DNA from: Candidatus Kapaibacterium sp.
Lineage (GTDB): Bacteria > Bacteroidota > Ignavibacteria > Kapaibacteriales > WFXC01
Direction: 5' to 3'
DNA length: 64,000 nucleotides
Assembly: GCA_027082775.1 (NCBI GenBank)
Contig: JALWUI010000063.1
Coordinates: 4,975-68,974, forward strand
The position numbers were made by a program, and so were the translations under genes. The notes below the pieces were generated by a model, which worked only from the letters and a program-made list of their open reading frames with translations, was not told the DNA's origin and searched no databases. Shown here piece by piece: positions 11,628-54,012 of the stretch (within the stretch, counting starts at the first letter, position 1; the number at the start of each line of letters is the position of its first letter).

Positions 11628-11794
11628 CGATCCTCCGATGGGTTTTGTTCAGATTCAGTGTTCCCCAATTCGATTGCGTAAACAGTAAATCCACGATGCA
11701 GTGAGAAAAGCATTGCTTGTATGCTGAAAAGCTGCTGGGGTGAGCGTTCATCTGAAGAAAGGAAGACTTCCAGCAGGGAAGTTGCCCGTTTGCC

Positions 11795-29014: not shown

Positions 29015-29815
29015 ATGATCGTTGCTAAGAACATTTTTAAATCGTTTGGGGACAAAGCAGTTTTGCGGGGAATTTCCTTAGAAATTCCAGATCGTCACAC
29101 CACGTGCATCATTGGGCGATCTGGCTGTGGTAAAAGCGTTTTGATGAAAATCATTGTTGGTTTACTGCCGCCAGACCGGGGCGAGGTCTGGATTGATGGG
29201 AAGCCGCTGGCGCAGCTCAGTGCAGCAGAGCGGTATCAGTTGCGGAAGGATATCGGCTTTGTATTCCAGGGAGCAGCCTTGTTTGATTCTCTGACAGTGC
29301 TGGAAAATGTCGTTTTAGCGCCGTATCAACACGGAGTGCGGGATCCAGAGTATCTGGAGCGCGAAGCACAGCGCGTGCTGGAAGCAGTTGGATTGCTCCC
29401 GAATCGGGAAGAGGTGGGGGAAGAAGTTTTTCTTCGGGAATATGCAGCATTGAAGGACAAAAAACCGGCAGAATTATCGGGAGGGATGCGCAAGCGCGTT
29501 GGCATTGCCCGCGCGCTGGTCGGCAATCCCCGGTATGTTTTCTATGATGAACCAACCACCGGACTGGATCCGGTTACCTCGGAGCAAATTGACCGCCTCA
29601 TCCGGCACCTGGCGCAGCAGCTTTCCGTCACTTCCGTTGTGATCACCCACGATCTATTTTCGGTAACCAACGTCGGCGATACCGTTGTGCTCCTCCACAA
29701 TGGTAAAGTGCAGTTCGCTGGCACACCGCTGGAGCTCCTGCAATCCTCCGATCCGATCGTCCAGGAATTCATCGAACGGTACGAAGAAGGAGCGCAGTAC
29801 CTGTCGCAGGTGTGA
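29015..29815 (+). CDS. ABC transporter ATP-binding protein (MlaF/Ttg2A-like)
   Basis: Walker A GRSGCGKS, signature LSGGMRKRVGIARAL, Walker B VFYDEPTTGLD. Confidence 0.85.
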   Translation: MIVAKNIFKSFGDKAVLRGISLEIPDRHTTCIIGRSGCGKSVLMKIIVGLLPPDRGEVWIDGKPLAQLSAAERYQLRKDIGFVFQGAALFDSLTVLENVVLAPYQHGVRDPEYLEREAQRVLEAVGLLPNREEVGEEVFLREYAALKDKKPAELSGGMRKRVGIARALVGNPRYVFYDEPTTGLDPVTSEQIDRLIRHLAQQLSVTSVVITHDLFSVTNVGDTVVLLHNGKVQFAGTPLELLQSSDPIVQEFIERYEEGAQYLSQV

Positions 29816-29842
29816 GGAAATTTCGCCTCTCATCACGACCGG

Positions 29843-30090
29843 GCGCGTACACTTCAGTGTCCATTCTTTGCCGGCTGAAGCCGGCGCTCCCAGTGTGCGT
29901 ATTCAACCATCCTCACAACATCCCATCCGTAGGGGCAACCCGGCTGGTCGTCCGTAGGGGCGAGCGCCGCTTCGCCTCTACACATCGGCCGGGAGTACGC
30001 GTCTCAGTGTGCATTCCTCTCACCCTAACCTTCTCCCAGAGGGAGAGGGGATTTCTTGCCGGCTAAAGCTGGCGCTCCCGATTGTGCGTT
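29843..30090. repeat. Hairpin-array repeat cluster C
   Basis: Hairpins GTACACTTCAGTGTCC, CCGGCTGAAGCCGG, GGGCGAGCGCCGCTTCGCC and CTCACCCTAACC..GAGGGG. It shares a ~80-nt module (29868-29950) with cluster D (34293-34385). Confidence 0.7.
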
Positions 30091-30287
30091 GCTAATGCCA
30101 CTTCTTGGTTATATGGCGGAAATTTGCTATATTGAAAATGTTGAAAATGGCAGGAATGGAGGAGGGGCGAAGCGGAGAGCGTTGGAGACGGATAGGAACG
30201 GAAGGAGTGAATCGGTAACGTTCTGGACATTTGACGCAGCGAACGGAGATTCAAACTGTTGTGGGATAAATCAAAGGAGTTTCGCTG

Positions 30288-33200
30288 ATGCAACGATTCA
30301 CTCTGTCGCTGATCGTTCTGTTCCTGACAACCGCTTCGCTGTCGAGCCGCACGATTTCCGAAATCTACAACGTGATCGCATCGCCGTATAGTTACGTTCC
30401 CGTGTCGCAATCGAATTCTTCAACCCTGGTGGATCTCAAGCAATATACCTCAACCTATCCAAGCAGTCCGCTGTATGGCAATTATGACGACGGCATTATT
30501 CTGCTGGGAAATTTTGGTAATTCTCAGGTCATCAATTTTGCGTTCCCGTTCAATTTGAATGAGGAAAACCAGAATGTTTTAGCACACGCTGTAAGTACGA
30601 ATGGAATGTTTCAACCCATTCGGACGCGTTCCAGCGGGGGAGGTGTGGTCACCGTGAACTCTTTTCCGTATCCATCCAGCGCCGGATACTGGGGGAATTC
30701 CCAGACCTGGAATGCAATCTTTGGCTTCGGAGGCGATCTGGATCTCTCGAACGACACGACGTCGAAATGGTACTATGCGGTTCAGGGGAGTGCACCGAAT
30801 CGGCGAATTGTCTTTGAATGGCGAAATGCGAAGATTTATGGTACCAGCACGCGGGTGACTTTCCAGATCATTTTGAACGAGTCCGATAAGTCGATCGACT
30901 TTGTCTTTGGTGGCGTCAACGGTCCGATGCCATCAAATATGACCTTTTACACCGGTGTAAACGAAGGAACGGCAGCGTTGTCCAATTACAACATTCCTGA
31001 AAAAGACAGCCACGGCGATCCGGGAAATTACATTGCGTGTAAATTTGAGAATGGATCGTGGACGTACTCCAGTTCGGTGTCGAATCCATACGGAACGATC
31101 GGAACGTTCCCGACAGAAAATATCCGCTTCTGCATTGCCCCGATTCTGAACGTATCTGCGCCGCCAACAACATTGTTCAATGCAGCGACAAATACAAATG
31201 ATCGGATCAGCGTGGGAACAACCCTGACAAAGACGTACACCATTACCAATCAGAATTCTTCCAATGCGCCGCTGAAGATCACTACCGAAATTTCCGGTCC
31301 GGGTGCCGGTTCGTATTCGGTGACCCCCGCGCAGGTGGCAGCCTTGCAACCGGGCAGTTCGCAGCAGTTTCAGGTAACGTTTTCCGGCAATGCGTTCGGT
31401 CCACGGAACGCTCAGTTGATTTTCCGCCTTTCGTCCATTGATGGTGCCAGTTGTCCTGAATTTCTGGATCCGGTCTCTGTTGGACTTCAGGGGCGCGTTC
31501 TGGGATTGGATGCTGTGATCGATCCGCTGGAGCTGGATTTTGGACAGGTTGCGGTGAATGCAACGACGGATCGAGAGTTTGCCCTGTTCTGGAATGAATC
31601 TTCGCAGACGTTGCGCTACCGCTTCTATGACCTGCAGGGGGGAGAGTTCCAGTTGCTGGGAGCGACCGGCGTTCCGCCAGAAATCGTCGGTACCGTGGCG
31701 CCGGGTGATACGGTGAAACTTCCCATCCGGTTTCATCCCAGCAGCATTGGACAGCAGCAGGCAACGGTGCGATTTCAGTATTCAAATGTGCAGCAAACGG
31801 TGTTTTCCGATGAGTACCTGGTCACGGTGCGCGGCGAGGGGACACCCACACGGTTGAAGTTTGCCATCGGCGATAACGATGAGCACGCTCCATCCGGTTC
31901 CGTGCTGGGACAGCAGCGGGAGGCAGTGGTTGGTGAACAGCCGGCAGACTTTCCCTTTACCATTTCCAATACCGGGATCGGCGGGAACGTGCGGCTGTGG
32001 AATTTCCACTTCGTTGCGCTGGATGTGGATAATCCCGTCGGTGGGCGGTTCCGCGTGCTCTGGACCCACGGCTTTGGCCAGGGAGAACCGGTGTCGCTGA
32101 ATCGCCACTTCCGGTTGCAGGCGTGGAATGGAACGGCGTGGGAAATGGTAGATCCGGCAGTTGGGGTGACGGTGAAACCGGGAGAATCGCTGCAAATGCG
32201 GGTGCTCTTTGCTCCCCATCGACGGGGCGTGTATTTTGCCCGGATGTTCTTCCAGACCGATGCAACTGCCGACCACAACTACAATGCAATTGAGGCGTTG
32301 AATGAAGCCGATCAACTCACTGCTGGATTGCAGTCCTATGATCTATACGGGTTGCGGGCACGAAATTCCCGGCTGGAACGGTTGAAGAGAGTGGAATTTC
32401 CGCCGACGAAGATTGGGCACTCAGCAGAAGTGGCGGTGCCGATTGTGAACACTGGCGATGCCCGGTTGCTCATCGACCAGTCAAGGGTGCGGCTGTTGCC
32501 CGGTGATCCTGATTTTGAAATTGTCTCGGCGTTTCCCCAGAAACCGATTGACAATGGCAACTACGTGATCGCTGTGGGCGACACCGGATACATCTACATT
32601 CGGTTCACGCCGCAGGCGATTGGTGCGCGCTACTCCCGATTGGAACTGTACTGCAATGATTCAACCAATGCAGAAAGCACTCGTGGACGGCGTTCCGCTT
32701 TTATCTTTGGAGAAGCGGTGGGAGTGCCAGTGCTGGATGTGCAACTGGCAGGATCCGACACGGTCCTTTTCGCTCAGGATACCGTTGTGGTCGGGGATCC
32801 AACCACGTACAAGACAGCGAGTGTTCAGCTTGTGAATACGGGAAGCGAGACCTTAGAAATCACCGACATTCTGCTCAGCGGTGCCAATGCTGACGACTAT
32901 CAGCTTGCCTACCGAACGTGGCGGAAAGATCCAGAACCACAGGGAGATTTGCCCTGGCTGCTGGAGCCCGGTGATCAGCGCACGGTGACGGTGAGTTTTA
33001 TGCCGCAGACGCCGGGACATAAATCTGCTGCAGTGCAAATTCGGAGTAATGCAGAGAATGGCGCAGTGCTGGAAATTCCACTGGGTGGCTTTGCTGGCGT
33101 TCGCACAATCGCTGCCGCTGTTGATACCCTCTTCCTCACCGATAGCGTGGTGATCCAGGAAACGATCACGCGCACCGTTGCCATCCTGAATACCGGCACT

Positions 33201-34022
33201 GTGCCGGTACAGATTCTCAACGCAACGATTCAGGATGATGCAAATCGGAGCTATGCAGTCAACTTCTCCGATCCGGTCACCATTCCACCGTCGGAAAGCT
33301 ATGATCTGGAAGTGCGGTTTACGGGGAAGGAACTGGGACCGCAGCCAGCGACCTTGGTGGTAGAAAGCAATGCGACCGATGCGGCACAGTTGCACATCGC
33401 GCTGGCAGGCTATGTGGGATATCGCCTCCTGCGGTCGATTAGCCCGTTGATCAAAGTGACCCGGCACATCACCCCCGGTGGATTGCAGGGCAGCGAAGGG
33501 TGTGTCGATTTGCAAAATCTGGGCGACATCTCCCTGCGGATCCTCAGCGTTGCGATTTACGGTGATCAACTGGGTGAGTTTGAAATCCTCGAGTACCCGG
33601 AAGTGCTGATGCCGAATCAAAAAGCACCGTTGTGCATTCGGTATACTCCGAAATCTGAGCAGTTCCCCACCGCCTTTGTGGAAATCGAAGACAACGATCC
33701 ACGGTCGGTCAATCTGACCATTCCGATCAACATCATCGTTACGGGAATTGCCAAACAGCCGCACCAGAATCGAGGGATTACCGCAACGCTCTACGACGAG
33801 AACCGGGTGCTATCCATCGACCTGGCACTCACCCATCCGCAGCCAGTGCAAATTCGGATAACGGATCTTGCGGGCAAAGTGCTCTTTCAGGCGAAGGAAA
33901 CCAATCCGGTAACCCGGCTGCGGTTGCAGGTGCCGGCAGAGCGATGGAGTAGTGGTTTATACGTATTGCACGTTCAGGGCGTCGATGGTCAGTTAACACA
34001 ACTCTTTTCCATCGTGCGCTGA
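30288..34022 (+). CDS. 1244-aa secreted multi-Ig-like-domain protein with T9SS C-terminal sorting domain
   Basis: Signal peptide; many DFGQV..N.t repeats; C-terminal T9SS CTD-like beta-sandwich (...LYVLHVQGVDGQLTQLFSIVR). Confidence 0.6.
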   Translation: MQRFTLSLIVLFLTTASLSSRTISEIYNVIASPYSYVPVSQSNSSTLVDLKQYTSTYPSSPLYGNYDDGIILLGNFGNSQVINFAFPFNLNEENQNVLAHAVSTNGMFQPIRTRSSGGGVVTVNSFPYPSSAGYWGNSQTWNAIFGFGGDLDLSNDTTSKWYYAVQGSAPNRRIVFEWRNAKIYGTSTRVTFQIILNESDKSIDFVFGGVNGPMPSNMTFYTGVNEGTAALSNYNIPEKDSHGDPGNYIACKFENGSWTYSSSVSNPYGTIGTFPTENIRFCIAPILNVSAPPTTLFNAATNTNDRISVGTTLTKTYTITNQNSSNAPLKITTEISGPGAGSYSVTPAQVAALQPGSSQQFQVTFSGNAFGPRNAQLIFRLSSIDGASCPEFLDPVSVGLQGRVLGLDAVIDPLELDFGQVAVNATTDREFALFWNESSQTLRYRFYDLQGGEFQLLGATGVPPEIVGTVAPGDTVKLPIRFHPSSIGQQQATVRFQYSNVQQTVFSDEYLVTVRGEGTPTRLKFAIGDNDEHAPSGSVLGQQREAVVGEQPADFPFTISNTGIGGNVRLWNFHFVALDVDNPVGGRFRVLWTHGFGQGEPVSLNRHFRLQAWNGTAWEMVDPAVGVTVKPGESLQMRVLFAPHRRGVYFARMFFQTDATADHNYNAIEALNEADQLTAGLQSYDLYGLRARNSRLERLKRVEFPPTKIGHSAEVAVPIVNTGDARLLIDQSRVRLLPGDPDFEIVSAFPQKPIDNGNYVIAVGDTGYIYIRFTPQAIGARYSRLELYCNDSTNAESTRGRRSAFIFGEAVGVPVLDVQLAGSDTVLFAQDTVVVGDPTTYKTASVQLVNTGSETLEITDILLSGANADDYQLAYRTWRKDPEPQGDLPWLLEPGDQRTVTVSFMPQTPGHKSAAVQIRSNAENGAVLEIPLGGFAGVRTIAAAVDTLFLTDSVVIQETITRTVAILNTGTVPVQILNATIQDDANRSYAVNFSDPVTIPPSESYDLEVRFTGKELGPQPATLVVESNATDAAQLHIALAGYVGYRLLRSISPLIKVTRHITPGGLQGSEGCVDLQNLGDISLRILSVAIYGDQLGEFEILEYPEVLMPNQKAPLCIRYTPKSEQFPTAFVEIEDNDPRSVNLTIPINIIVTGIAKQPHQNRGITATLYDENRVLSIDLALTHPQPVQIRITDLAGKVLFQAKETNPVTRLRLQVPAERWSSGLYVLHVQGVDGQLTQLFSIVR

Positions 34023-34162
34023 AAACGCTTCCATAGCACCCGACAACGTCGCAAGCGTGCAACGGGTCGCAGACGGAGAACGCTATGGCGCGCTCTTACT
34101 CTCAAGCGGCGCTACAAGCGTGCAACGCCTCGCAGAGCAGAAGATTTTGAGCGGTAGCGCTG

Positions 34163-34455
34163 CCGGCGGGTTTTCGTTGGTAGAAAAGTTTCGCACGTCA
34201 CTCACGGGAAACACGCATTGCAGCCCGCATTTAGCGGGAGCGCACGCTTCAGTGTGCATTCACTGGGAACGTACCCTTTAGGGTGCAAAGATGCCGGCTA
34301 AAGCCGGTGCTCCCAGTGTGTGTGTATTCAACCATCCTCACAACATCCCATCCGTAGGGGCGACCCGGCTGGTCGCCCACTTTCTACATCCGCAGGAACT
34401 CTCGATAGCTCATCGGGCGAAGCACCGCTTCGCCCCTACCATTGCGCGCAACTAC
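34163..34455. repeat. Hairpin-array repeat cluster D
   Basis: Positions 34163-34292 are about 95% identical to 37396-37525 of cluster E in the same orientation. Also contains a 22-nt direct repeat CAAGCGTGCAACG..TCGCAGA, two copies between 34050 and 34145. Confidence 0.7.
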
Positions 34456-34490
34456 ACCCAATGGTTCGAGGAGGTACACCGCAAGTTGGA

Positions 34491-37265
34491 TTACCGCACC
34501 AGCACCATTCTTTTTACCTCAACAACTCCACCAGCCCTGAGCTGGTAGATGTATACTCCGTCCGGTAACTTGCTGGCATCGAAGACTACCGAATGCCTGC
34601 CTGCTTCAAGCACTGCATCGATCACCGTCGCTACCTCTCTGCCGAACAGATCAAAGACCTTCAGCGTCACAGCGGTTCGCTGTGGCAGGAAAAAAGGAAT
34701 AGTCGTTGTGGAATGGAATGGTTCCGGTTGATTCTGCTCAAGAATTGGTCGGTGAGGAAAGAGCGGATTTTCCGATACACTGGTTGCCTCTACCGTGATT
34801 GTTCGCCACTGGCTCCAGTATCCCAGTGCCGTTTTCCAGTCCATTGCCCGGACGCGGAATTCCCACGTCCCACCGGCTAATGCCAGCGAATCAGGCAGGG
34901 TAAATGATGCGGCTATACCGGGATCAGCAAAGGCAGTTTGCCAGTGGATAGTCACAGTATCCCGTTTGAGCTCGATGCGATATGCCAGCGAATCTCCCTG
35001 GGGATCATCGGCTTTCAGAACAAACGTTGGTGTGGGTGATACCATTGCGCCTGCTGCTGGTTCTGTGATCTCCACCGCCGATGGTGAATCGTTCAGGGAG
35101 TCCAGTTGCTTGTAGATCTCAGGGGTCATCTCGTGGAGTGTGTCGCCCTGTTGCCAGAGGCGATTACCGTCTGCTCCTGCTACTTTCCGGGGTGTTGCGG
35201 GCGGCGTCAGTTCACGTTGTATTCTGGAAGGCGGGATGTGCACCCGATCTTGCCAGTTGATCCCGTGGCGCAGATCGATGTTTGCCCAGTCATCATAACT
35301 GGTCAACACGCTTCTTCTCCAATCTCTGTTAATATCCCGCTGCACGTTGACATCGTGGGTATCGCCATCTTGATTCCAATCAACGGGACCGCGTTCACGA
35401 ACAAAGGTGGTGTCCATAGGAAGCACATGCCCTGCGTGTCCCCCGATCCCTGCTGGTTCAGAAAGGGAATCTTCGTTTAAGATGTTGAATGCCTGGCGGG
35501 AATAATCCAGGATCCAGCTTCCCGCATAGCTCCTGAGAGGAAGCTGCCAGAGGTAGTTCATAACGCTATGGAAGTTCGGTTTATAGTTTGTGTGGTCGCT
35601 GCCGCCGTGGCGAAGTCCAAGGGTATGCCCCAGCTCGTGCATAAAGGTTCCTGCTACGACGTTATCCCACGTTAGCGGTGGATTGGGATGTTTGGTAAGC
35701 GCCAAGCGGTATGCTTGCCAGTCAAAGCTTCCCAGGGAAACGATAAAATCATCGCCGGGGAGTTCTGCCAGGCCAGAGGATCCATCGGCATCATACTGAA
35801 CGGCAAAAAGGCAGTAGCGAAAAACCATCCGCCTGGCTTTGCGAATGTTCTCCCAGTTGTCGCTGGCCCGCTCTGCTGGAGTACCGAAATATATGGCTTT
35901 CAGTGAATCAAATTCCTGCCAGATGGTCAGCAGCGGATCTGGATCGATGGATAGATCTCCACCATTCTGCACGTGCAGTGCAAATGGTGGCTTGTCAGGC
36001 GCGCGCCGAAAGGCAGCAACGACTGCATCAATCGCTGCTTTAGATGGAGCCATCCCCTGCATTGCATCATATTCCACGAAGATATCCCGCTGTCCCACCT
36101 TAGCACCTAACGCTGGCAGGTCAAGATCAACAGTGCCGTCGTTGTTGATGTCGATTCCGTCGCGTTCCCAGTCATCGCAGATGTAATCCTGATCGGTATC
36201 CCCGCCGGGGCAGGTATTCAGCAAAAAGCCCCTGGAATACCCGACTGTAGCGTTGAAACCGTTTCCTACGATGTAGCGGCCGTCAGAAGAAATGGCTTCT
36301 GCGGAAATGAGTTGCGAGCCATCAGCTAACAGGGTAGCAAAAGTAGAATCCAAATTTTCTACTCTGAACATCTGAATATCCCACACCGCAGCGTGATAGT
36401 TACCACGTTCATCCTTGGCCTTACCTACCACGAAACGCCCATCGGCGGAGATACCGTGCGCCTCACTGGACGTCCCCCCGAAGGTGCCGAGCCCGAGCAT
36501 AAGCTTTGATGCTATGTCCCATAAAACGGCTTGCCTGAAATCTCCGCCTGTTTGCCCTGCAACGAAGCGCCCATCAAGAGATACATCATAGGGCCGGCTA
36601 TCATAGTCGTCAAGAAATTCGAGATCTAACAGCTTCCCTGTTTTTACACTCCAGCGCACGGCGTGCCGATTATTGGCTGAATCCGTTGTCATACCAACCA
36701 CAAAACGACCATCGGGAGAAACAGCATTGGCGACACCCCAGTAGCCCCCTAAGTCCCCAAGATCCTGAATCCGTCCAGTTCGTGCATCCCAAAGGAAGGC
36801 ACGACGTATTCCTAAATTTCCTTCCTCAGCCCAGCCAACCACGTAACGACCATCGGCAGAAATGTCCGTGGCTCTGCTGCGTGCTCCTCCCAGTGTGCCA
36901 AGATCCTGGATCCGTCCAGTTCGTGCATCCCATAAAAAAGCACGTTCGTATCCTTCGGCATTGCGGGAACTCCCAACCACAAAATGACCATCGGCAGAAA
37001 TACCCCAGGCGAAGCTTTCGTCCCCTCCCAGTGTCCCGAGATCCTGCACTTTCCCTGTGACTATATCCCATCGAACAGCGTGTCTTGTGCCACTGGTGGT
37101 GCTTGCCCAGCCGACTGCGTAGCGGCCATCAGCAGAAATGTCGTATGCTGCACTGAAATCACCCCCTAACGTGCCCAGCCAGATAAGCTGTTGTGCCTGC
37201 GAGATGGGAGTCCAGAGGATCATCACTACCAGCGAGATGGAACAAACAGAACGCCACTTCATCAC
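34491..37265 (-). CDS. T9SS-sorted protein with N-terminal HAF repeats and a metzincin-type zinc metalloprotease domain
   Basis: Signal peptide; about 8 HAF repeats (RAFLWDARTGRIQDLGTLGG..S.A.gISADGRyVVG); metzincin motif HELGHTLGLRHG (HExxHxxGxxH); FN3-like module; T9SS CTD (GVYIYQLRAGGVVEVKRMVLVR). Confidence 0.65.
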   Translation of the reverse strand: MMKWRSVCSISLVVMILWTPISQAQQLIWLGTLGGDFSAAYDISADGRYAVGWASTTSGTRHAVRWDIVTGKVQDLGTLGGDESFAWGISADGHFVVGSSRNAEGYERAFLWDARTGRIQDLGTLGGARSRATDISADGRYVVGWAEEGNLGIRRAFLWDARTGRIQDLGDLGGYWGVANAVSPDGRFVVGMTTDSANNRHAVRWSVKTGKLLDLEFLDDYDSRPYDVSLDGRFVAGQTGGDFRQAVLWDIASKLMLGLGTFGGTSSEAHGISADGRFVVGKAKDERGNYHAAVWDIQMFRVENLDSTFATLLADGSQLISAEAISSDGRYIVGNGFNATVGYSRGFLLNTCPGGDTDQDYICDDWERDGIDINNDGTVDLDLPALGAKVGQRDIFVEYDAMQGMAPSKAAIDAVVAAFRRAPDKPPFALHVQNGGDLSIDPDPLLTIWQEFDSLKAIYFGTPAERASDNWENIRKARRMVFRYCLFAVQYDADGSSGLAELPGDDFIVSLGSFDWQAYRLALTKHPNPPLTWDNVVAGTFMHELGHTLGLRHGGSDHTNYKPNFHSVMNYLWQLPLRSYAGSWILDYSRQAFNILNEDSLSEPAGIGGHAGHVLPMDTTFVRERGPVDWNQDGDTHDVNVQRDINRDWRRSVLTSYDDWANIDLRHGINWQDRVHIPPSRIQRELTPPATPRKVAGADGNRLWQQGDTLHEMTPEIYKQLDSLNDSPSAVEITEPAAGAMVSPTPTFVLKADDPQGDSLAYRIELKRDTVTIHWQTAFADPGIAASFTLPDSLALAGGTWEFRVRAMDWKTALGYWSQWRTITVEATSVSENPLFPHRPILEQNQPEPFHSTTTIPFFLPQRTAVTLKVFDLFGREVATVIDAVLEAGRHSVVFDASKLPDGVYIYQLRAGGVVEVKRMVLVR

Positions 37266-37308
37266 CGATGATCTCCTTTGTTGTGCTCACAAACAAATCT
37301 TGCAGTAC

Positions 37309-37372
37309 TACAAATTTACGCCGCCCGTTGCTTCAATGCAATAGCATTTTTTCCAAAATGTCACTGGAAGAA
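37309..37372 (-). promoter_or_regulatory. Conserved upstream motif plus Bacteroidetes-type -33/-7 promoter (copy 1) for the HAF-metzincin gene
   Basis: Gene-sense sequence ...CCAGTGACATTTTGGAAAAAATGCTATTGCATTGAAGCAACGGGCGGCGTAAATTTG. TTG and TAAATTTG (TAnnTTTG) are spaced 20 nt apart; the upstream block recurs at 58760 and 51710. Confidence 0.5.
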
Positions 37373-37395
37373 GTTCCTTTTAGCGACATATGCCG

Positions 37396-37925
37396 CCAAT
37401 CGCTACTGGGTCTCCATCGGTGAAAGAATCTTTCGGCACGTCACTCGCGGGAAACACGCATTTCAGCCCGCATTTAGCGGGAGCGCACGCTTCAGCGTGC
37501 ATTCACTGGGAACGTACCTTTAGGGTGCATTTACTGGGAACGCACCCTTTAGGGTGCATTCTTGCCGGCTAAAGCCGGCGCTCCCGGTAAGGCACTCCCT
37601 GTTACTGGGAGCGCACCCTTTAGGGTGCATTCTTGCCGGCTGAAGCCGGTGCTCCCAGTGGGGTTTACTGGGGGCATACGCTTCAGCGTACGTTGCCCTC
37701 ACCCTACCCCTTTCCCAGAGGAAGAGGAAATTTCCTGTATCTGTAGGGGCGACCGGCTGGTCGCCCATCGGGCGAAACATTGCTTCGCCCCTACATATCA
37801 CGCTGGGAGCGCACCCTTTAGGGTGCATGCCGACTGAAGTCGGCGCTCCTGGGTGGGTTGCGACAGGGGAGCGCACGCTTCAGCGTACACCATCTGTGGT
37901 AGGACAACCCTCCGGGTTGTGCAAG
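37396..37925. repeat. Hairpin-array repeat cluster E (largest)
   Basis: Units GCACGCTTCAGCGTGC, GCACCCTTTAGGGTGC (several copies), CCGGCTAAAGCCGG, CCGACTGAAGTCGG, GCGACCGGCTGGTCGC, GGGCGAAACATTGCTTCGCCC and GGACAACCCTCCGGGTTGT. Confidence 0.75.
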
Positions 37926-38014: not shown

Positions 38015-39613
38015 CTACTCTGCCACCAGCTCGTGCCATTGCAGAAATGTCAGCGCTGGCATTCGCCCGCTACCTTCTTCCCACTCCTGCTGCCGTTTCT
38101 GCTGGTAGTATTCCGTGATCGACATACCTGCTGCTTTCGCTTCCAGCCAGGTGAGAATATCGAATTCGATCGATTCCTGCTCCAGAGCTTCTGAAAGGAT
38201 GCGATGGATGCGCTGGTAAAACGGCAGCGTTGCCGAAAGGTGCGATGCGGCAACAGTGCTGGATATTCGCTGCAGGATGCGTCGCATCACCCCTACCACG
38301 GGGACAAATGAAGGGTACTGCTGCACAAAGCGGTAGAGGCGTCCTAAAGCACGCTCTGTTGCTTCAAAGTCGCGCTGTTCCCAGGCGATGATGCTGAGAA
38401 GGAGTCGCACGAGAAAACCGATTTGTTGCAACAGCCGTTGTGAGGTGCGATCGTATGCGGCTTCCAGGTACTGACGGGCAAGGTCATACTCTTGCAGCCA
38501 GAAAGCAATGCAGCCAAGGTGGTACAAAGCCGCTTTGTAAAAGTAGGGATATCGCTGGCAATACTGTTGCAGAATCTGTTCGATTATCTGCCGATGGGCA
38601 AAGATTTCTTCAAACTGTCCTAATTCCAGCGCCAGATACAACACCACGTTCAGATACAGCATCTCCACCTCGTCCCTGATGATGTCGTTTTCTTGAGCAG
38701 CACCGTTTTCCTGTTGCCAAAGCTGTTTGATGGTTTCAAATCGTCGCTCGATGGTGTGGGCATCGCGGGCGGCGGCAGCACTGATAATCTGGTTATGCAG
38801 CGCATTGAAATAGGCTAACGGGTACCACTGCGGTCGCTGGGAATCGTACTGAAAATACTGGATCAACTGTTCATAGCATTCTACTGCCCGTGCTGGCTGA
38901 CCACTAATAGCCCATAGCAGTGCCTCGGTGTTCCAGCGCAAAAAGGGGATGGGGAAAGGATCGGTCATATAAGCAGGAATGCACTGAAGCTGATCGATCA
39001 CTGGCTGAATAAGCATCTTGCCCTTAGCACTGGAAGCTCGAACGTTGCCCTCAACGTAGCGGGTGTTCCACCGGGAGTGAATATCCAGTAATTGCACGAA
39101 CCGCTGGGTCTGGTCCAGCGCTTCCTGCAACTGTTTCAGGTGCTGAGAAAGCTCCTCCTGGCTGAACAACTGAAAATTCCGATGACTGTGATACTCAAGT
39201 TGCAACACCGCTGCCGCCAGTTTTTGCACAGGATCACCAGCGATGTCGGCAGTGCGGTAGGTTTTTTGTGCGGCTTTTATAGCATCGCTATCCTGTCCTC
39301 CTACAAAAGCGAAGCGGGAGAGAACCAGGTTGAACAGTCCAGCACTCTGCTTGTCCTGTTTCATTAAAACGTACGTTCCAATCTGCAACACTCTGGTATA
39401 CACCTTGTGCCGCAGCGCTCGAAGATCTGTCTGAATTCCCTGCTGCTGGAGGGCAGAGCGCAACTGTTGATCGCCCCATTCTGGATGCTGTTCCAGAAGC
39501 TCCAGAAAGACCTGCTCTGCTTCCGTGAGTTGAATCCGTATCCCTTGCTTGATTTGCTGCCACAGGTCTGAAGGAAGTGTGCGCAATAATTGATTCAGTT
39601 TGTAATGTGCCAT
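38015..39613 (-). CDS. Hypothetical all-alpha (TPR-like) cytoplasmic protein, paralog 1 of a two-member family in this window
   Basis: No signal peptide; helical composition. It is roughly 65-70% identical across its full length to the ORF at 51807..53387 (MAHYKLNQLLRTLP... vs MADHKLDQLLRALP...). Confidence 0.6.
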   Translation of the reverse strand: MAHYKLNQLLRTLPSDLWQQIKQGIRIQLTEAEQVFLELLEQHPEWGDQQLRSALQQQGIQTDLRALRHKVYTRVLQIGTYVLMKQDKQSAGLFNLVLSRFAFVGGQDSDAIKAAQKTYRTADIAGDPVQKLAAAVLQLEYHSHRNFQLFSQEELSQHLKQLQEALDQTQRFVQLLDIHSRWNTRYVEGNVRASSAKGKMLIQPVIDQLQCIPAYMTDPFPIPFLRWNTEALLWAISGQPARAVECYEQLIQYFQYDSQRPQWYPLAYFNALHNQIISAAAARDAHTIERRFETIKQLWQQENGAAQENDIIRDEVEMLYLNVVLYLALELGQFEEIFAHRQIIEQILQQYCQRYPYFYKAALYHLGCIAFWLQEYDLARQYLEAAYDRTSQRLLQQIGFLVRLLLSIIAWEQRDFEATERALGRLYRFVQQYPSFVPVVGVMRRILQRISSTVAASHLSATLPFYQRIHRILSEALEQESIEFDILTWLEAKAAGMSITEYYQQKRQQEWEEGSGRMPALTFLQWHELVAE

Positions 39614-40823: not shown

Positions 40824-41285
40824 ATGAGAAGAAAGGCAACAGTGATTTTCATCTTGATGGGATTGTTTGTCAGTGTGTATTATACCAATGCAGCAACTAA
40901 AGATTGGGTGCCTTCTTTAAAATGCGGACCTGGAATTGTTTTTACTCGAGTGGGACCTGCTATCGAATGGCTATGCTTCGAATATGTGGCAGGTTGCTAT
41001 GTAACCTGCAAATATGTGTGTACCTATGAATCGGAAGGTCACCGTTATACTTTCGTCTTTAGATGTAGAGAAGGACTGTGGCAGTTTCCATCTTTAGTAT
41101 GTCTGCGACGTCCTTATGGTGTTCGGAGTTGCAATGATCCTCAAGATCTCTTCTTATTATGCAATCAACAATTCTCAGTTTTACAGCAGATTTATTGCGA
41201 GAGCTGCGAAGACTTTGACAGTGGAGATATTTTCTGTGCTCAGGTTTTGACCATAGAGCCGCGAATTCTGGCGCCCGGACAATAA
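40824..41285 (+). CDS. Small secreted cysteine-rich protein with Sushi/CCP-like spacing; lies in an AT-rich islet
   Basis: Signal peptide; about 13 Cys residues; the segment C-GPG...C...G-Y..C...G..Y....C..G-W..P...C resembles the Sushi/CCP consensus. Local GC is about 42% against about 57% elsewhere. Confidence 0.45.
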   Translation: MRRKATVIFILMGLFVSVYYTNAATKDWVPSLKCGPGIVFTRVGPAIEWLCFEYVAGCYVTCKYVCTYESEGHRYTFVFRCREGLWQFPSLVCLRRPYGVRSCNDPQDLFLLCNQQFSVLQQIYCESCEDFDSGDIFCAQVLTIEPRILAPGQ

Positions 41286-42659: not shown

Positions 42660-42819
42660 CAGTGCCGCCGGGGGCACAATACCCCCGGTGGTGGAATTCA
42701 GTCCCCGGCGTTTCCGGACATTTCGCGCAGGCTTGCACCACAGATAAGGAATAAGCGCCTACGCCAGTCGGCATCACCTCCGGCTCCACGCGCATACTTA
42801 CCAAAAACCGGCTATGTTC

Positions 42820-43310
42820 CATCGACCGGGAGCGCACACTCTTAGGTGTGTATCGTTGATCCTTATGCCGACTGAAGTCGGCGCTCCCAGTCGGCGCTCC
42901 CGGTAAGCGATCCCAACTGCTGGGAGCGCACGCTCTTAGGCGTGCATTGCCCTCACCCTAACCCTCTCCCAGCGGGAGCGGGAATTTTTGCATCTGTAGG
43001 GAGCGACTCGGCTGGTCGCCATCACCCGCACCCGTAGGGGCGACCGGCCGGTCGCCCCTACTACACATTTACGCCAGTGCCTCCTTTATCATCTGCCGGC
43101 TGAACCCGGCGCTCCCAGTTCAGTGCTTCCACCTACTGGGAGCGCACACTCTTAGGTGTGCATCTACTGGGGAGCGCACCCTTCAGCGTGCATTCACTGG
43201 GAGCGCACCCTTTAGGGTGCATCTTTGCCGGCTAAAGCCGGCGCTCCCAGAGGAGCGCACGCTTCAGCGTGCACCATCTCTGTGGTAGGACAACCCTCCG
43301 GGTTGTCCAA
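42820..43310. repeat. Hairpin-array repeat cluster F
   Basis: Units GCACACTCTTAGGTGTGT/C (3 copies), CCGACTGAAGTCGG, CTCACCCTAACCC..GGGAGCGGG, GGCGACCGGCCGGTCGCC, GCACCCTTTAGGGTGC and GGACAACCCTCCGGGTTGTCC. Confidence 0.75.
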
Positions 43311-43548
43311 AGCAATGCTTTGCTATCCACTGCTGGCGAAAGTCGACGCTCTCAGCCCTGAGGAAGGAAATAGAGCAGATGGCTTTTTCCATATGGAGGA
43401 AATCTTCGAGGCTTCGGGAAGAACCGTGCCCAGGTTCAGCGAAGGACGTATCCTAAGAGTGCCGATAGCGTGCCTTCCTTGCTTATGTCAGATTTCGATA
43501 GCTACACATCACGGAAACCCACGCGATGGCTGCTGCCCGTGAAAATCC

Positions 43549-44937
43549 TCAACGCACCACAATCACCTTCACTGTTTTGTTCAATTCCCCAGCACGGATG
43601 TGGCACAGGTAGATGCCTTCAGGTATCCCCAGCAACGCCCATCGCACCTGATGTTCGCCGGGTGGCAGCATCCTATCGACCAGCGTTGCTACGTGGTATC
43701 CCAGCAGGTTGTAGATTTCCAGCGCTACGGGTGCAGGCTTCGGCAGCGAAAAACCGATGTGGATGTCAAGGCTGGCGGGAGGGTGCACAACGTTGACCTT
43801 CCACGGAATATCTCCATCATCGCTCAGGTCCGTGGACGATTGCGCATCCAGCCAGAAGGCTTCTCTCCAGCGACCTGCTATGGCATTGAATCCTACGCCC
43901 ACGATGTAGCGGCCATCTGGCAGGATGGCGCGTGCTTCCTTGAGAAAGGAATCGCCGGCGAGCAGGGTGCTGTAGGTCTGGCTGAGGTTTTCCGCTATGC
44001 CTGCCACGGCATCCCACCGAACAGCGCGGACCTCGCCACTATCATTCTCTGCCCAGCCGACGACATACCGTCCGTCCGACGAAACGCCCACAGCCCAACT
44101 CGAACCGCCGCCCAGCGTACCGAGGTCCTGGGTCAGACCAGTTTCCATATCCCACCGAACAGCGTGGACGTCACCGCTGTCATTCTCTGCCCAGCCAACC
44201 ACAAATCGCCCGTCGGCTGAGATGCCAAACGCATAGCTTTCGTTCCCTCCTAAGGCTCCAAGCTCCTGAATTTCCCCGCTCTGCATATCCCATCGCACAG
44301 CGCGCCATTGCCCAGCAGCATTTTCTGCCCAGCCGACAACAAATCGTCCATCGGCGGAGATCCCGTAGGCAATGCTCTCACTGCCGCCCGGCGTTCCCAG
44401 TTCTTCCATCTGTCCAGACTGCATATCCCACCGTACGGCACGCCATTGCCCAGCAGCATTTTCCGCCCAGCCGACGATGAAGCGTCCATCGGCGGCAATG
44501 CTATACGCCCGACTCCAGCCACCACCCAGATGCCCCAGATCCTGCACCTGGCCGGTTAGCGCATCCCACCACGCAGCGCGCCGCCAATTGCTGTCGTTTT
44601 CTGCCCAGCCGACGACATATCGACCATCGGCGGAAATCCCGAACGCGACACTCTCCTTTCCTCCAAGGGTTCCCAGATCCTGCACATGTCCAGTCAGCAC
44701 ATCCCACCGCACAGCTCGCCGCCAGCTACTATCGTTTTCCGCCCAGCCGACAACGAAACGCCCATCGGCAGAGATCCCATACGCCCAGCTTTTACTTCCG
44801 CCCAGCGTCCCCAGCCAGCGCAGATGCTGCCCGTTGCCGGTGCTAACAGCAAGGAGCAGAACGAAGCCTGCTGAATACACCCATCGACGCATTGCTTCTC
44901 TCCTGATCGTTCCTGAAAGTACGAGGGAAATTAACAC
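43549..44937 (-). CDS. HAF-repeat protein (seven repeats) with T9SS C-terminal sorting domain
   Basis: Seven tandem units (RRAVRWDvlTG.vQDLGTLGG..S.A.GISADGRfVVGWAEN) followed by a CTD (GIYLCHIRAGELNKTVKVIVVR). The start may be the internal MRRWVYS (44892). Confidence 0.7.
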   Translation of the reverse strand: MLISLVLSGTIRREAMRRWVYSAGFVLLLAVSTGNGQHLRWLGTLGGSKSWAYGISADGRFVVGWAENDSSWRRAVRWDVLTGHVQDLGTLGGKESVAFGISADGRYVVGWAENDSNWRRAAWWDALTGQVQDLGHLGGGWSRAYSIAADGRFIVGWAENAAGQWRAVRWDMQSGQMEELGTPGGSESIAYGISADGRFVVGWAENAAGQWRAVRWDMQSGEIQELGALGGNESYAFGISADGRFVVGWAENDSGDVHAVRWDMETGLTQDLGTLGGGSSWAVGVSSDGRYVVGWAENDSGEVRAVRWDAVAGIAENLSQTYSTLLAGDSFLKEARAILPDGRYIVGVGFNAIAGRWREAFWLDAQSSTDLSDDGDIPWKVNVVHPPASLDIHIGFSLPKPAPVALEIYNLLGYHVATLVDRMLPPGEHQVRWALLGIPEGIYLCHIRAGELNKTVKVIVVR

Positions 44938-48017: not shown

Positions 48018-48340
48018 AGCGTTGACCCTGAGAGCGCCGGCTTTAGCCGGCACGTTCATGCACCCTAAAGGGTGCGTTCCCAGTGAATGCACGCTGAAGC
48101 GTGCGCTCCCAGTGACTGGAGCGCCGACTTCAGTCGGCAACAACTTCCCTCCTTCTCTGGGAGAGGGTGAGGGTGGTGCACACCTCAGAGTGTGCGCTCC
48201 CAGGCGATGGAAACACCGACACTGAGAGTGCCCCACTGGGAGCGCCGACTTCAGTCGGCAATAACTAAACAGCAGGACAAGCCGCTGGCTTGCCCTGGAC
48301 ACCCCGGAGGGGTGTCCTACCACCGTAAATGCGCACTGAA
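48018..48340. repeat. Hairpin-array repeat cluster G (inverted orientation relative to D/E)
   Basis: GCACCCTAAAGGGTGCGTTCCCAGTGAATGCACGCTGAAGCGTGCGCTCCCAG is the reverse complement of the D/E module. Also CCGACTTCAGTCGG (2 copies), CCCTCCTTCTCTGGGAGAGGGTGAGGGTGG and GGACACCCCGGAGGGGTGTCC. Confidence 0.75.
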
Positions 48341-51375: not shown

Positions 51376-51694
51376 CTTTCATCCCTCCTGTTCTGTTGCA
51401 TTGCCCCATATTCAGTGCCCGGACTCGAAGGGCTCTTTTTTATCGTTTGTTCATTCCCCGAATTCTCTTTCAGGTCTTGACGCCTAACTCTTCCAGCATC
51501 AGAAATGCTGACCGGTGAATCTACCGCATTTTCGGATCCGAGCAAATTTACGTCGAAATTCCTTCCCAGCAAGGGAAAATTTTTGCAAATGTCCCGCAGG
51601 GGACAGGTGTTGATGATGATTCCTGCCGGGAAGCAAAGGAACGCTGGGTTTGAGGGTTCCCATAATTGACATTCCCCAAGTGTGGACACAATAC

Positions 51695-51762
51695 TGCAAA
51701 TTCACGCTACTTGCTGCCCGAATGCAATAGTGCTTTTCCCAACAAATGTTATTGTTTCAGCA
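51695..51762 (-). promoter_or_regulatory. Conserved upstream motif plus -33/-7-like promoter (copy 3), about 320 nt upstream of the HExxH protein gene
   Basis: Gene-sense sequence ...AACATTTGTTGGGAAAAGCACTATTGCATTCGGGCAGCAAGTAGCGTGAATTTG. A weaker related block lies at about 51545-51600. Confidence 0.4.
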
Positions 51763-51806
51763 ACACAGTTTCCCATCTTCTCATTCTCCGGAATAGGAGG
51801 AAATGA

Positions 51807-53387
51807 CTACTGCGGCACCAGCTCGTGCCATTGAAGGAATTTCAATGCTGGCATTCGTCCGCTGCTTTCTTTCCACTGCTGCTGCCGCTTCTGTTGATAA
51901 TACTCCGTGATTGATATCCCCTGCACCTTGGCTTCCAGCCAGGTAACCAGGTCAAACTCGATCGATTCTCGTGCCAAAGCCTCTGAAAAGATGCGATAGA
52001 TGCGCTGGTAGAACGGCTGCTCCTCCGGCAGTCGATGTGCTGCAAAGGTGCTCGGCATCCGCTCTACTATACGTCGCACTGCACGTACCACCGGAACAAA
52101 AGCTGGATACTGCCGGACGAACCGGCGAAGACGCTCCAGTAACCGTTCCAACGCCTCAATGTCCTGCTGCTCCCAGGCAATGATGCATAAAAGGAGTCGG
52201 ACCACAAAGCCAATTTGCTGCAACAGTCGTTGCGAGGTATGATCGTAAGCGGCTTCCAGATACTGGCGGGCAAGGTCGTATTCCTGTAACCAGAAAGCGA
52301 TGCAGCCCAGGTGGTATAAAGCCACTTTGTAAAAATATGGATACTGTCGGCGATAGTGCTGCAGTATCTTTTCAACGTGCGACCGGTCATTGAAAATGTT
52401 GTCGAAGCTCCCTAATTCCAGAGCTAAATACAGGACGATGTTCAGATACAACATATCCATTTCGTTTTTGATTGCAGCATCCGATTGCTGCCGGAGCCGT
52501 ATAATTTCCGCAAAGCACCGCTCGACGATCGCTGCGTTTCGGGCTGCTGTTGCAGCAACGACCTGATTATGCAATGCACTGAAATATGCCGGTAAATAAA
52601 GGTGTTTTCGACTTTCGGCGATCTGGAAATACCGAAGAAGCTGTTCATAGCATTGCACTGCTTTGTCCGGTTGTCCCTGTATGTTCCACAGCAGCGCTTC
52701 GGTGTTCCACCGCAGAAATGGGATGGGAAACGGGTCTGCTTCATAAGCAGGAATCTTCTGGAGTTGCTCGATAACCATAGGAGCAACTGTTGCAGCTTCG
52801 GAACTGGAAATCCGAATTTCTCCTTCAACGTACCACGAATACCATCGAGCATTTAACAGAAGCAATTGCACATATCGTTGAGTCTGGTCCAGGGCAGTCT
52901 GCAAGTGCTCGAAACTCTTACGTAATTCCTCGTGATCCAGCAGTTGGAGGTTTCGATGCAGATGGTACTCAAGCTGTAGCGCCATTGCTGCCAGCTTTTG
53001 AATAGGATCACCAGCGGTATCGGCTGAGCGATAGGTTTTTGCCACAGCCTTTAAAGCATCGCTATCCTGCCTCCACTCAAAAGCAAAGCGAGAAAGAACC
53101 AGATCAAACAATATAGTACTTTGTTTGTCCTGTTGCATTAGCACGTATGCTCCGATCTGCAATACCTTGGTGTACACTTTATGCCGCAGTGCTCGAAGAT
53201 CTGTCTGAATTCCTTGCTGCTGGAGCGCAGAGCGCAACTGTTGATCGTCCCATTCTGGGTACTGCTCCAGAAGACTCAGAAAAGACTTTTCCACCTCCGT
53301 CAGTTGAATCCGTATTCCCTGCTTGATCCGCCTCCGCCACACTGGCGGCAAGGCGCGCAGGAGCTGATCCAGTTTGTGATCTGCCAT
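51807..53387 (-). CDS. Hypothetical all-alpha cytoplasmic protein, paralog 2
   Basis: Full-length similarity to 38015..39613. Start assigned to MADHKLDQLL by alignment with its paralog. A conserved element, CATAAA(T)TTAGCRAATTG, lies 35-45 nt upstream of both paralogs. Confidence 0.6.
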   Translation of the reverse strand: MADHKLDQLLRALPPVWRRRIKQGIRIQLTEVEKSFLSLLEQYPEWDDQQLRSALQQQGIQTDLRALRHKVYTKVLQIGAYVLMQQDKQSTILFDLVLSRFAFEWRQDSDALKAVAKTYRSADTAGDPIQKLAAMALQLEYHLHRNLQLLDHEELRKSFEHLQTALDQTQRYVQLLLLNARWYSWYVEGEIRISSSEAATVAPMVIEQLQKIPAYEADPFPIPFLRWNTEALLWNIQGQPDKAVQCYEQLLRYFQIAESRKHLYLPAYFSALHNQVVAATAARNAAIVERCFAEIIRLRQQSDAAIKNEMDMLYLNIVLYLALELGSFDNIFNDRSHVEKILQHYRRQYPYFYKVALYHLGCIAFWLQEYDLARQYLEAAYDHTSQRLLQQIGFVVRLLLCIIAWEQQDIEALERLLERLRRFVRQYPAFVPVVRAVRRIVERMPSTFAAHRLPEEQPFYQRIYRIFSEALARESIEFDLVTWLEAKVQGISITEYYQQKRQQQWKESSGRMPALKFLQWHELVPQ

Positions 53388-54012
53388 CACTTTTCTGTTG
53401 CTATCTGTCACAGACCCACCAGACATAAAATTAGCGAATTGAGTCCGAATAGTTGCTGCATTTTTCACGTGCTGAAAAGATGCACTCCTTTTTCTGCCAC
53501 ACTTTATTCAAACGGGAAGAAAACGGCAGAGGCTTTGTGCTCATTCCACCGCCCAGCGCAGAGAGCAGAGCAATGTCGAATCCTTCGAGGATAACACAAA
53601 AGGGACAAAGAATAAAAAGAAGCGAGCGTTGCTCGAAAGCGCGTCTTTGGTCTTCGGGTCTCAGAAACAAAGGACCCAGTATGTACGAGAGCGATCTACA
53701 ACGGTAGCTGGTGCAACCAGTAGCTCAGGCTCCATAAAGAACCAATCCTCTGGCAGTAGCACCACCGGGCTTGTTCCTCGACGGGAAAACACCTGCCGAT
53801 TTCGCAGGATCAGCGTGATCAGATCTTTTCATTTTTCGACCCAACTACCCGTGACCACCCCATCGCTGTATGTGCTGGAATGCGGAGTCGGGGAATACTG
53901 AGGCGATGCTGCTGGCGTTCCTCAGACATCAATGGAATCCCATTGCAAATGCCCTGCTGTATTGGAAGTCAGGAGCTTTGGAGGTTTGATTCAACCAGCA
54001 CCCGTACTGGAG

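Follow-up and report, generated by a model that had tools for sequence, protein, structure and literature searches.

What is the purpose of small hairpin repeats that gather between genes and make the two sides of a gene look alike? This question is raised by a 64-kb stretch of DNA from Candidatus Kapaibacterium sp. (contig JALWUI010000063.1), called the window in what follows, which holds eight intergenic repeat arrays, named A to H, several of them lying beside genes for large proteins with a C-terminal sorting domain of the type IX secretion system (T9SS). A reading made from the sequence alone had noted that neighboring arrays share long direct repeats around individual T9SS cargo genes, and had suggested a recombination- or cassette-like organization mediated by a composite element resembling a miniature inverted-repeat transposable element (MITE) or a bacterial interspersed mosaic element (BIME). 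The answer that we reach, and that we consider reasonably probable, is that the arrays are mosaics, like BIMEs and like Neisseria’s intergenic mosaic elements (NIMEs), of Kapaibacterium-specific units resembling repetitive extragenic palindromes (REPs), and that they act as recombination hot spots at the 3′ ends of genes and are not a cassette system. We read them as hot spots of the REP/BIME type because they join the structure and position of REPs to the organization of BIMEs, with a parallel in the NIMEs.

The basic unit, M1, is a 27-nt hairpin whose stem comes in two subtypes, a (GCACNC) and b (GCCGNC), and these letters are used below to spell out the arrays. A 23-nt degenerate pattern of the a type, scanned against one genome per species for 185,579 species, recognized at least 76 stretches, and among the matches listed almost all lie in two metagenome-assembled genomes, Candidatus Kapaibacterium sp. 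S141_32_esom and Candidatus Kapaibacterium sp. M17_metabat1_scaf2bin.117 (hereafter S141 and M17). The others listed are one isolated match and a 1.5-kb contig of 10 hairpins (L007) that is binned as Aquificales and is probably mis-binned. The hairpins are a lineage-specific family in hot-spring Kapaibacterium genomes, and they also occur in “species B”, which is the same species as S141, because the sequences of the two at the locus called slot 2 below are identical. The loci examined from these relatives amount to ~0.9 Mb of redundant DNA (886 kb including the window). WFXC01000044 of S141 and the window are collinear, with 88–94% identity; the window is nearer to the M17 and JOHN19 assemblies, to which most of its genes are 95–98% identical. 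In practical terms, short-read metagenome assemblies evidently break at the arrays, and mis-binning can result; the contigs L078 (3,083 bp, containing only the HAF gene discussed below) and L007 (1,506 bp) both start and end in hairpin arrays.

Direct repeats of adjacent arrays and the slot between them

When the eight arrays are compared all against all, the three most identical pairs, D/E, C/D, and A/B, are all pairs of neighbors (coordinates in Table 1). Arrays C and D flank the gene of a 1244-aa secreted protein, and the ~80 nt that they were said to share are real and far beyond chance, since 29868-29950 and 34293-34385 agree in direct orientation at 77 of 81 aligned nucleotides (95%). 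For D and E, a repeat of ~130 nt at ~95% identity had been reported; the direct repeat stands, but this level of identity is reached only in a 100-nt core (34189-34287 versus 37431-37529, 95%, direct orientation), whereas 34163-34292 and 37396-37525 agree, also in direct orientation, at 107 of 119 aligned nucleotides (90%). A longer core (34189-34317 versus 37431-37588) gives 93% over 129 aligned nucleotides and includes an additional 28-nt hairpin in E. Arrays A and B have ~190 nt in common at 90–92%, against 73–83% for other copies of the same ~190-nt composite.

The simplest objection is that there is nothing special here: adjacent arrays would be alike merely because they are assembled from the same abundant units, and the brackets would be an artifact of how the sequence was read. 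It is true that the a-a-b block alone is 87–90% identical between any two arrays, adjacent or not (D/G, F/H, and F/G are examples), and that only the unique parts, together with the A/B composite, set adjacent pairs apart from the general family likeness. These unique parts are, however, what the objection fails to account for, as the C/D and D/E identities include 30–45 nt found nowhere else in the ~0.9 Mb except at orthologous spots. One of them, X-right (~34189-34232, matching 37436-37475), recurs elsewhere only at its orthologous position, and the other, C-unique (29895-29932, matching 34324-34357), only in S141 (L044) and species B (L089), again at the orthologous location. Considering also the margin by which A/B exceeds the other composites, the adjacency of all three top pairs, and the polymorphism of the bracketed gene, we find this explanation scarcely credible.

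The polymorphism concerns two alternative positions of a gene for a HAF-repeat protein. Slot 2 is bracketed by arrays D and E, and slot 1 lies farther along the window, the order of genes on the minus strand being ...936 - TPR553 - (slot 1) - 975 - BNR840 - ... - TPR532 - (slot 2) - 1244 (convergent) - ABC, where numbers give protein lengths. In S141 and species B, slot 2 is empty, and between the 1244-aa gene and the TPR gene there is one copy of X, a sequence specific to this locus, and then a few hairpins; in these genomes HAF, together with its promoter-like element, occupies slot 1, which is ~3.0 kb longer there, in agreement with the 3,045-bp excess implied by the spacing of the S141 tiles. 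In the window, in M17, and in one JOHN19 assembly, HAF occupies slot 2 and slot 1 is empty. In the JOHN19 loci L082 and L083, slot 2 holds HAF and, between its 3′ end and X, a further 5.5 kb with six genes, which encode a metallo-beta-lactamase-fold protein, a DUF6615 protein, and four proteins without family; none of the six is a recombinase, and the L082 insertion has no hairpin boundary on its distal side. The variation between strains that had been proposed as a test of the bracket idea is therefore present, with three states of slot 2 (empty, HAF, and HAF plus six genes). Each of the two TPR paralogues sits directly upstream of one HAF slot. In the repeat stretches detected, their nucleotide identity is 71–81% (~70% for the proteins), and homology between them may have guided the relocation of HAF. 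Scanning metagenomes with TPR532 as the query protein gave a single 2.4-kb contig, which covers the other side of the gene than the slot, and an exact-sequence look-up of the 1244-aa protein gave no match.

The element that travels with HAF is related to those at 51692-51754 and 58735-58797 and to the one 5′ of HAF in slot 1 of species B. In the window such elements precede three minus-strand genes, namely HAF and those of the 975-aa and 548-aa proteins, all coding for large, apparently secreted proteins, and they end in TAAATTTG, which resembles the Bacteroidetes −7 motif. The element 5′ of HAF is thus a putative promoter.

How the long repeats arose can be read from the alleles of slot 2. 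X is single-copy in the empty alleles of S141 and species B and duplicated in all filled ones, where a full second copy, X′, stands in array E beside the putative HAF promoter and carries a common 8-nt insertion relative to X; the duplication therefore predates the split between the window and M17. On the array D side the breakpoints differ among alleles: M17 retains only the left part of X, L082 has still less, and the window has the whole of X, then a-a-b, and then C′, a 94% copy of 29868-29953. C′ ends in a GTAG-tagged hairpin (34354-34378), which forms a head-to-head REP dimer with the one at 34415-34439. Because X-right of the window has the X′-type variant CCCGC, where the empty alleles have CTTGT, and because C-unique is found in array D of the window only, this array D is a recent chimera, in which X-right-a-a-b from E (93–95% identity) has been fused to b-C-unique-GTAG hairpin from C (94%), with the b hairpin at 34291-34317 as the junction between the two copies. 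The brackets are scars of local copying between adjacent arrays, with the switch made in a common hairpin. The long direct repeats are not the vehicle by which HAF arrived, since M17 has HAF in slot 2 with an array D that lacks the long copy of X-right/a-a-b and the copy of C. A derivation of X′ from slot 1, along with HAF, was rejected because slot 1 of species B has the promoter element only and no X-like sequence.

These alleles also bear on the idea of a dedicated cassette system. In its favor, the presence or absence of a gene is located exactly at the D–E bracket, HAF is found in two alternative slots, a further six genes have entered one of them, and arrays A and B bracket a restriction-modification island by a tRNA gene; a similar idea was proposed for the dRS3 repeats of the Neisseria NIME arrays (PMC1797815). 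On the other hand, the M17 allele contains HAF without the long bracket, the duplicated X and C-unique are unique sequences with no common core, breakpoints vary from allele to allele, the L082 insertion is without a distal hairpin boundary, and housekeeping operons are bracketed too. Nor is there an integrase, a transposase, or a Y1 enzyme in the window or in the inserted segments: a Pfam scan of all window ORFs (open reading frames) of at least 150 aa yielded no integrase, recombinase, or transposase. The earlier opinion that the arrangement is not integron-like agrees with this result, and where an integron would have an integrase and attC-like sites, the bracket repeats are unique local duplications with housekeeping genes intervening. 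A dedicated cassette system has, in our judgment, only a slight chance of being correct; of the cassette-like organization, the turnover driven by recombination at repeat-flanked slots survives, and the dedicated mechanism does not, the brackets being secondary scars.

Turnover of arrays and divergence of flanking genes

The reading of the arrays as recombination hot spots draws on their own variability and on that of the genes beside them. Orthologous arrays keep their positions and differ in the number of hairpins, from 1 to 12; array C, for instance, measures 222 bp in the window and 519 bp in S141. The site of array F (window 42660-43548; L093 7301-7423; L089 6058-7440) exists in three states, with no array and a 124-bp spacer in M17, 889 bp of repeats in the window, and arrays plus a 135-aa PEGA-domain gene in S141 and species B. 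Not being a clean empty/filled pair, it gave no insertion signature. Not far from it, S141 lacks an equivalent of a 153-aa ORF without Pfam family (40824-41285), its alignment to the window skipping from 1635 to 1511 of L070, and tblastn gave no match for this ORF in the other loci fetched.

The HAF protein of the window is only 73% identical to that of M17, amid adjacent genes that are 95–98% identical at the nucleotide level, and in its C-terminal two-thirds it has more in common with the HAF in slot 1 of species B (84%) than with that of M17 (81%); such divergence between well-conserved neighbors indicates allele replacement. Kinship is mosaic elsewhere too, as the ABC ATPase gene (29015-29815) is 97.5% identical to S141/species B versus 93.4% to M17, and the 975-aa gene (48448-51375) 92.6% versus 86.1%, and these relationships point to recombination between the populations. 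When window and M17 are compared, array-flanking genes have a nucleotide identity of 90.8% (n = 9) versus 96.6% for the others (n = 6; one-sided Mann–Whitney p = 0.004); between window and species B, the difference between the two groups of genes is not significant. Taken together, the breakpoints at which genes were gained, lost, or relocated, or their alleles replaced, coincide with the arrays, which present, as an analogy only, the features by which NIMEs are recognized, that is, syntenic but variable arrays whose flanking genes are less identical or rearranged.

Some further observations concern slot 2 and its surroundings. The 924-aa HAF gene and a 462-aa gene (43549-44937) have coding tandem repeats of 138–141 nt in common, at 36424-37178 and 44038-44814. 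At ~34 kb (window ~32000-36000), exactly at slot 2, the sign of the GC skew switches, its cumulative curve reaches a peak, and gene orientations converge; this switch could be a replication-terminus-like point or an effect of gene strand, and a simple motif search found no dif-like site at it. The A/B bracket encloses a type I restriction-modification module with an embedded toxin–antitoxin-like pair and without hsdR, beside a tRNA gene, and it looks like an island and like the same phenomenon as D/E.

Units, grammar, and genomic position of the arrays

M1 consists of an unpaired tail, ACTGGGAGC, followed by GC(AC/CG)NC, a TTYA loop, GN(GT/CG)GC, and a final A. Its GC-rich stem of 6 bp is paired in 94.6% of cells and has both-sided (compensatory) changes at three of the six pairs, a covariation that no shuffle reached, and registers slid along the alignment are only 18–36% paired. 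In the window a covariance model of the unit picks out 45 copies, every one of them inside arrays A to H and none in genes; two further hits are weak outliers with E ≥ 0.05. By a position-weight scan, the S141 tiles (388 kb) contain 361 copies and the M17 tiles (151 kb) 97. Rfam, at gathering thresholds, has no family for the repeats, and its only match is the tRNA.

The units are arranged by strict rules. Subtypes a and b are oppositely oriented in 108 of 108 clusters with typed units (window and tiles), and neighboring units form a-b pairs head-to-head (n = 158, spacing 2–5 nt), b-a pairs tail-to-tail (n = 115, spacing variable), and a-a or b-b tandems (n = 65 and n = 61) whose spacing is mostly exactly 2 nt, so that head-to-tail tandems make up 126 of the 399 neighbor pairs. 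The a-b doublet, 57 nt long with 9-nt terminal inverted repeats (ACTGGGAGC/GCTCCCAGT), folds as a Y, in which both tails pair in a 9-bp closing stem around the two hairpins (ΔG −20.8 kcal/mol, z = −5.9). Two other modules are mixed in: M2 (GTAGGGGCGA...), a GTAG-tagged hairpin with two stem variants that forms head-to-head dimers (e.g., 34354-34439 and 37743-37794), and M3 (CCCTCACCCTAACCCTTTCCCAGAGGAAGAGGGG), which is located in the spacer of an a-b doublet and scores as terminator-like. A composite of these modules, a-M3-M2 dimer-a-b and ~190 nt long, recurs at many dispersed loci with 73–80% identity.

The compactness of the doublet, its terminal inverted repeats, the dispersal of the composite, and the presence or absence of arrays at orthologous sites, such as F in M17, would all suit a MITE, i.e., a non-autonomous transposon (the 57-nt doublet or the 190-nt composite) moved by a DDE transposase, with the brackets as neighboring insertions. 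A MITE would also leave target-site duplications, and these are at chance level: among 118 head-to-head doublets a 2-nt match occurs in 7, versus 7.4 expected, and in none of them is a duplication above chance. Moreover, units also exist singly and as a-a and b-b tandems with a fixed 2-nt spacing, the unique X and C-unique sequences inside the brackets cannot be derived from a transposon, and no transposase was found among the ORFs scanned. For these reasons the MITE half of the proposed composite element is not upheld, and we rate an origin of the brackets by such insertions as very improbable. The units presumably multiply by a single-strand, Y1-transposase-like route, or by a recombinational one, that leaves no target duplication.

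When ORFs are called on sequence in which the arrays have been masked, arrays are found in 38 of 62 convergent (61%), 30 of 224 tandem (13%), and 15 of 49 divergent intergenic regions. The Pfam T9SS sorting domain is encoded by 19 of 142 array-flanking genes versus 2 of 150 other genes (p = 5e-5), and a locally iterated T9SS hidden Markov model recognizes 31 of 142 versus 8 of 238. The association is one of 3′ ends: an array lies directly downstream of 29 of 37 genes with a T9SS tail (78%) and of 68 of 311 others (22%; odds ratio 13, p = 1.5e-11), and at the 5′ side the counts, 6 of 24 versus 53 of 298, do not differ significantly. It survives stratification by gene length and by gene arrangement, an array being downstream of 28/33 T9SS-tail genes versus 25/105 others for genes of at least 400 aa, 22/22 versus 46/102 at convergent ends, and 7/15 versus 22/209 at tandem ends. 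The statistical tie to T9SS cargo genes that had been suspected is thus real, but it holds for the 3′ side and not for bracketing on both sides, and the brackets are not specific to cargo, as housekeeping units (PtsI, SAM hydroxide adenosyltransferase, and a pseudouridine synthase–RsmB operon) are also flanked by arrays on both sides.

A position behind stop codons invites the explanation that the arrays are primarily structured 3′ untranslated regions, which terminate transcription or protect the mRNAs of T9SS cargo expressed in abundance, with the rearrangements being incidental. It overlaps with the explanation that we prefer, and it is consistent with the strong 3′ bias at T9SS genes and its absence at their 5′ side, with a median of 70 nt from stop codon to first hairpin, with the terminator-like score of M3 and the failure to find canonical terminators between stop codons and arrays, and with what is known of REPs, which occur 3′ of genes and stabilize mRNA (PMC3733652, PMC12306157). 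It is less easily reconciled with the polarity of the arrays, which is not fixed relative to the strand of the upstream gene (20 versus 10 among T9SS genes and 44 versus 36 among the rest), with the poor conservation of orthologous arrays, where 1 to 12 hairpins are found and some sites are empty, or with the arrays in divergent, promoter-side regions counted above. As the primary role we hold it to be unlikely, although by no means negligible; as an additional role, the units probably act as 3′-end RNA or terminator structures.

Returning to the arrays as recombination hot spots, the course of events could be as follows. HAF and its promoter would have been placed into the X sequence 3′ of the 1244-aa gene, X being duplicated, and later array D of the window would have been rebuilt by copying from its neighbors E and C, with the switch inside a common b hairpin. 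Hairpin arrays may be fragile or recombinogenic, and their repair or exchange by homology-driven recombination, gene conversion, or template switching between arrays, both within the chromosome and with the DNA of related strains, would shuffle the adjacent genes, which are mostly those of T9SS-secreted proteins.

Several considerations weigh against this interpretation and temper our confidence in it. Rapid evolution is in any case usual in genes for secreted proteins, and the arrays need not be the cause of their lower identity. The mechanism is deduced from end products, and the order of events at slot 2 can be only partly reconstructed, with the direction of some of them deduced as well. 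The T9SS statistics come from 8-kb tiles that were picked for containing a hairpin, with crude ORF calls. None of the loci fetched reaches into positions 1-23,000 of the window, which contain the A/B bracket. Finally, the REP-associated tyrosine transposase (RAYT) of E. coli has no relative among 5,736 ORFs from the 886 kb, in what is a weak test, made by phmmer with this one query at E ≤ 10 on a fraction of each genome; the genes closely bracketed by arrays are housekeeping genes.

Table 1. Arrays, modules, genes, and slots of the window (the L082 segment is numbered on its own locus)
Feature	Coordinates	Strand	Remarks
Array A	6756-6996		order b a a M3 GTAG-dimer a b; adjoins tRNA gene 6617-6690
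Genes between A and B	7398-8216; 8265-8753; 8753-9904; 10074-11627		hsdS; DUF4411; HTH + peptidase-M78 ImmA-like; hsdM
Array B	11792-11990		90–92% identical to array A over ~190 nt
Array C	29838-30088		between ABC ATPase gene and 1244-aa T9SS gene; order a, b, C-unique (29895-29932), GTAG-REP dimer, a-like hairpin, M3 (30017-30050), b
1244-aa secreted protein	30288-34022	+	immunoglobulin-like repeats and T9SS C-terminal sorting domain; kept in all relatives
Array D	34137-34445		between 1244-aa gene and convergent 924-aa HAF gene
X (left part of array D)	34137-34232		locus-specific non-family sequence 3′ of 1244-aa gene
a-a-b hairpin triplet of array D	34233-34317		its b hairpin is 34291-34317
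Right part of array D	34318-34445		C′, then spacer, then inverted GTAG hairpin 34415-34439
924-aa HAF-repeat protein	34491-37265	-	weak T9SS tail; variable gene of slot 2
Promoter-like element of HAF gene	37306-37368	-	TAAATTTG on minus strand
Array E	37373-37925		between HAF gene and 532-aa TPR gene; order X′ (37373-37475), a a a b a b, a-like hairpin + M3 (37696-37729), GTAG dimer (37743-37794), a b a
TPR protein, 532 aa (TPR532)	38015-39613	-	paralogue of 553-aa TPR gene (TPR553) 51807-53468
Array F	42752-43279		between convergent genes
Array G	48024-48266		opposite polarity; downstream of 975-aa gene
Slot 1	51376-51806		between TPR553 and 975-aa gene; empty in window and M17
Array H	61562-61822		opposite polarity; upstream of DUF4397 gene
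Module M3 (CCCTCACCCTAACCCTYTCCCAGAGGRAGAGGGG) copies	30017-30050; 6836-6869; 11821-11854; 37696-37729; 42950-42983
L082 extra DNA	L082 3089-8595		ENA JOHN19-1 scaffold_13194

Comparison with known systems

REPs are known to stand in alternating orientation with regular spacing (Nunvar 2010, PMC2817692), and to form dimers, heterodimers, and clusters, mostly 3′ of ORFs, with head-to-tail tandems being rare; their super-families have an unpaired GTAG or CGTC tag at one end (Di Nocera 2013, PMC3733652). The Kapaibacterium unit resembles them in being a short, GC-rich extragenic palindrome with an unpaired tail, high in copy number, whose 27 nt, 6-bp stem, and 4-nt loop agree with the 20–40 bp stem-loops of REPs and whose place is mainly 3′ of genes and between convergent genes, without target-site duplication. 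As in BIMEs, two kinds of unit alternate in orientation over short, regular linkers, forming heterodimers, and are built into mosaics with other modules, so the description of the arrays as a composite BIME-like element was apt. BIMEs are further marked by a biochemical property, in that their linkers or REPs bind IHF, gyrase, or Pol I. The differences are that the tail of the main unit, ACTGGGAGC, is neither GTAG nor CGTC, the GTAG tag being confined to the minor module M2 with its head-to-head dimers; that a-a and b-b tandems are common; that no RAYT was seen in the sampled DNA; and that the host is a Kapaibacterium, of the Bacteroidota/Chlorobiota group, in which the 3′ side of T9SS cargo genes is preferred. 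This makes the repeats a previously unreported REP-like family, with a non-GTAG, non-CGTC tail and a strict rule for the orientation of a and b, from a lineage of that group that is thermophilic and uncultured; the arrays are strongly linked, in an orientation-specific way, to T9SS cargo genes at their 3′ ends.

REPINs (REP doublets forming hairpins) are said, following Bertels and Rainey in 2011, to be inverted doublets of REP units that make up a larger hairpin. The a-b doublets are similar in being inverted pairs that form a larger hairpin and in belonging to a lineage-specific family with hundreds of copies. They are unlike REPINs in that the two partners differ in stem sequence, which favors local hairpins and a Y shape over one long hairpin, and in that no cognate RAYT, a Y1 HUH transposase whose gene is usually flanked by the REPs (RAYTs are described in PMC2817692 and PMC3333891, Ton-Hoang 2012), was found in the sampled DNA.

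Module M3 has a likeness of its own, being 86–95% identical over 38–45 nt to a dispersed intergenic repeat of E. coli, CCCTCACCCTAACCCTCTCCC...GGGAGAGGGG, of which nearly every complete E. coli genome has ~13–19 intergenic copies, for example CCCTCACCCTAACCCTCTCCCAAAGGGAGAGGGGA in the ugpB–ugpA spacer; this repeat goes by the name “Box C”. In contrast to the E. coli repeat, M3 lies inside the spacer of an a-b doublet, and the hosts belong to different phyla.

The best-known parallel to the arrays as a whole is offered by the NIMEs, whose arrays are variable though syntenic and stand beside genes for surface proteins, whose flanking genes are less identical, in which recombination tracts have their end points, and in which dRS3 units (ATTCCCN8GGGAAT) bound RS elements (Bentley et al. 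2007, PMC1797815). In Kapaibacterium as well, arrays of small inverted repeats with variable fillers are syntenic and vary in repeat number between genomes, they stand beside genes for surface or secreted proteins whose identity is lower, and end points of replacement and insertion lie in or by them; NIMEs have been proposed to raise the local recombination rate. The sequences are nevertheless unrelated, tailed stem-loops here versus 20-bp dRS3 repeats that bound RS elements there, so the arrays do not qualify as members, and no candidate for a phage recombinase is known for them. By this comparison, the Kapaibacterium arrays would be an analogue of NIMEs by convergence and not one of them.

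NIMEs had been thought specific to their genus, having been stated not to be seen outside Neisseria (PMC1797815), and if the parallel holds, bacteria would have a recurrent strategy of concentrating recombination on surface-protein genes by means of repeat arrays. A bolder version, which we regard as doubtful, is that the arrays are a selected, NIME-like “variation engine” of independent origin, placed specifically behind T9SS cargo genes, which would help these surface or secreted proteins to be exchanged, relocated, and replaced from slot to slot and from strain to strain, maybe with an enzyme that recognizes the ACTGGGAGC-tailed hairpins; if true, gene shuffling guided by repeats would exist outside Neisseria too, and would use a new kind of REP unit.

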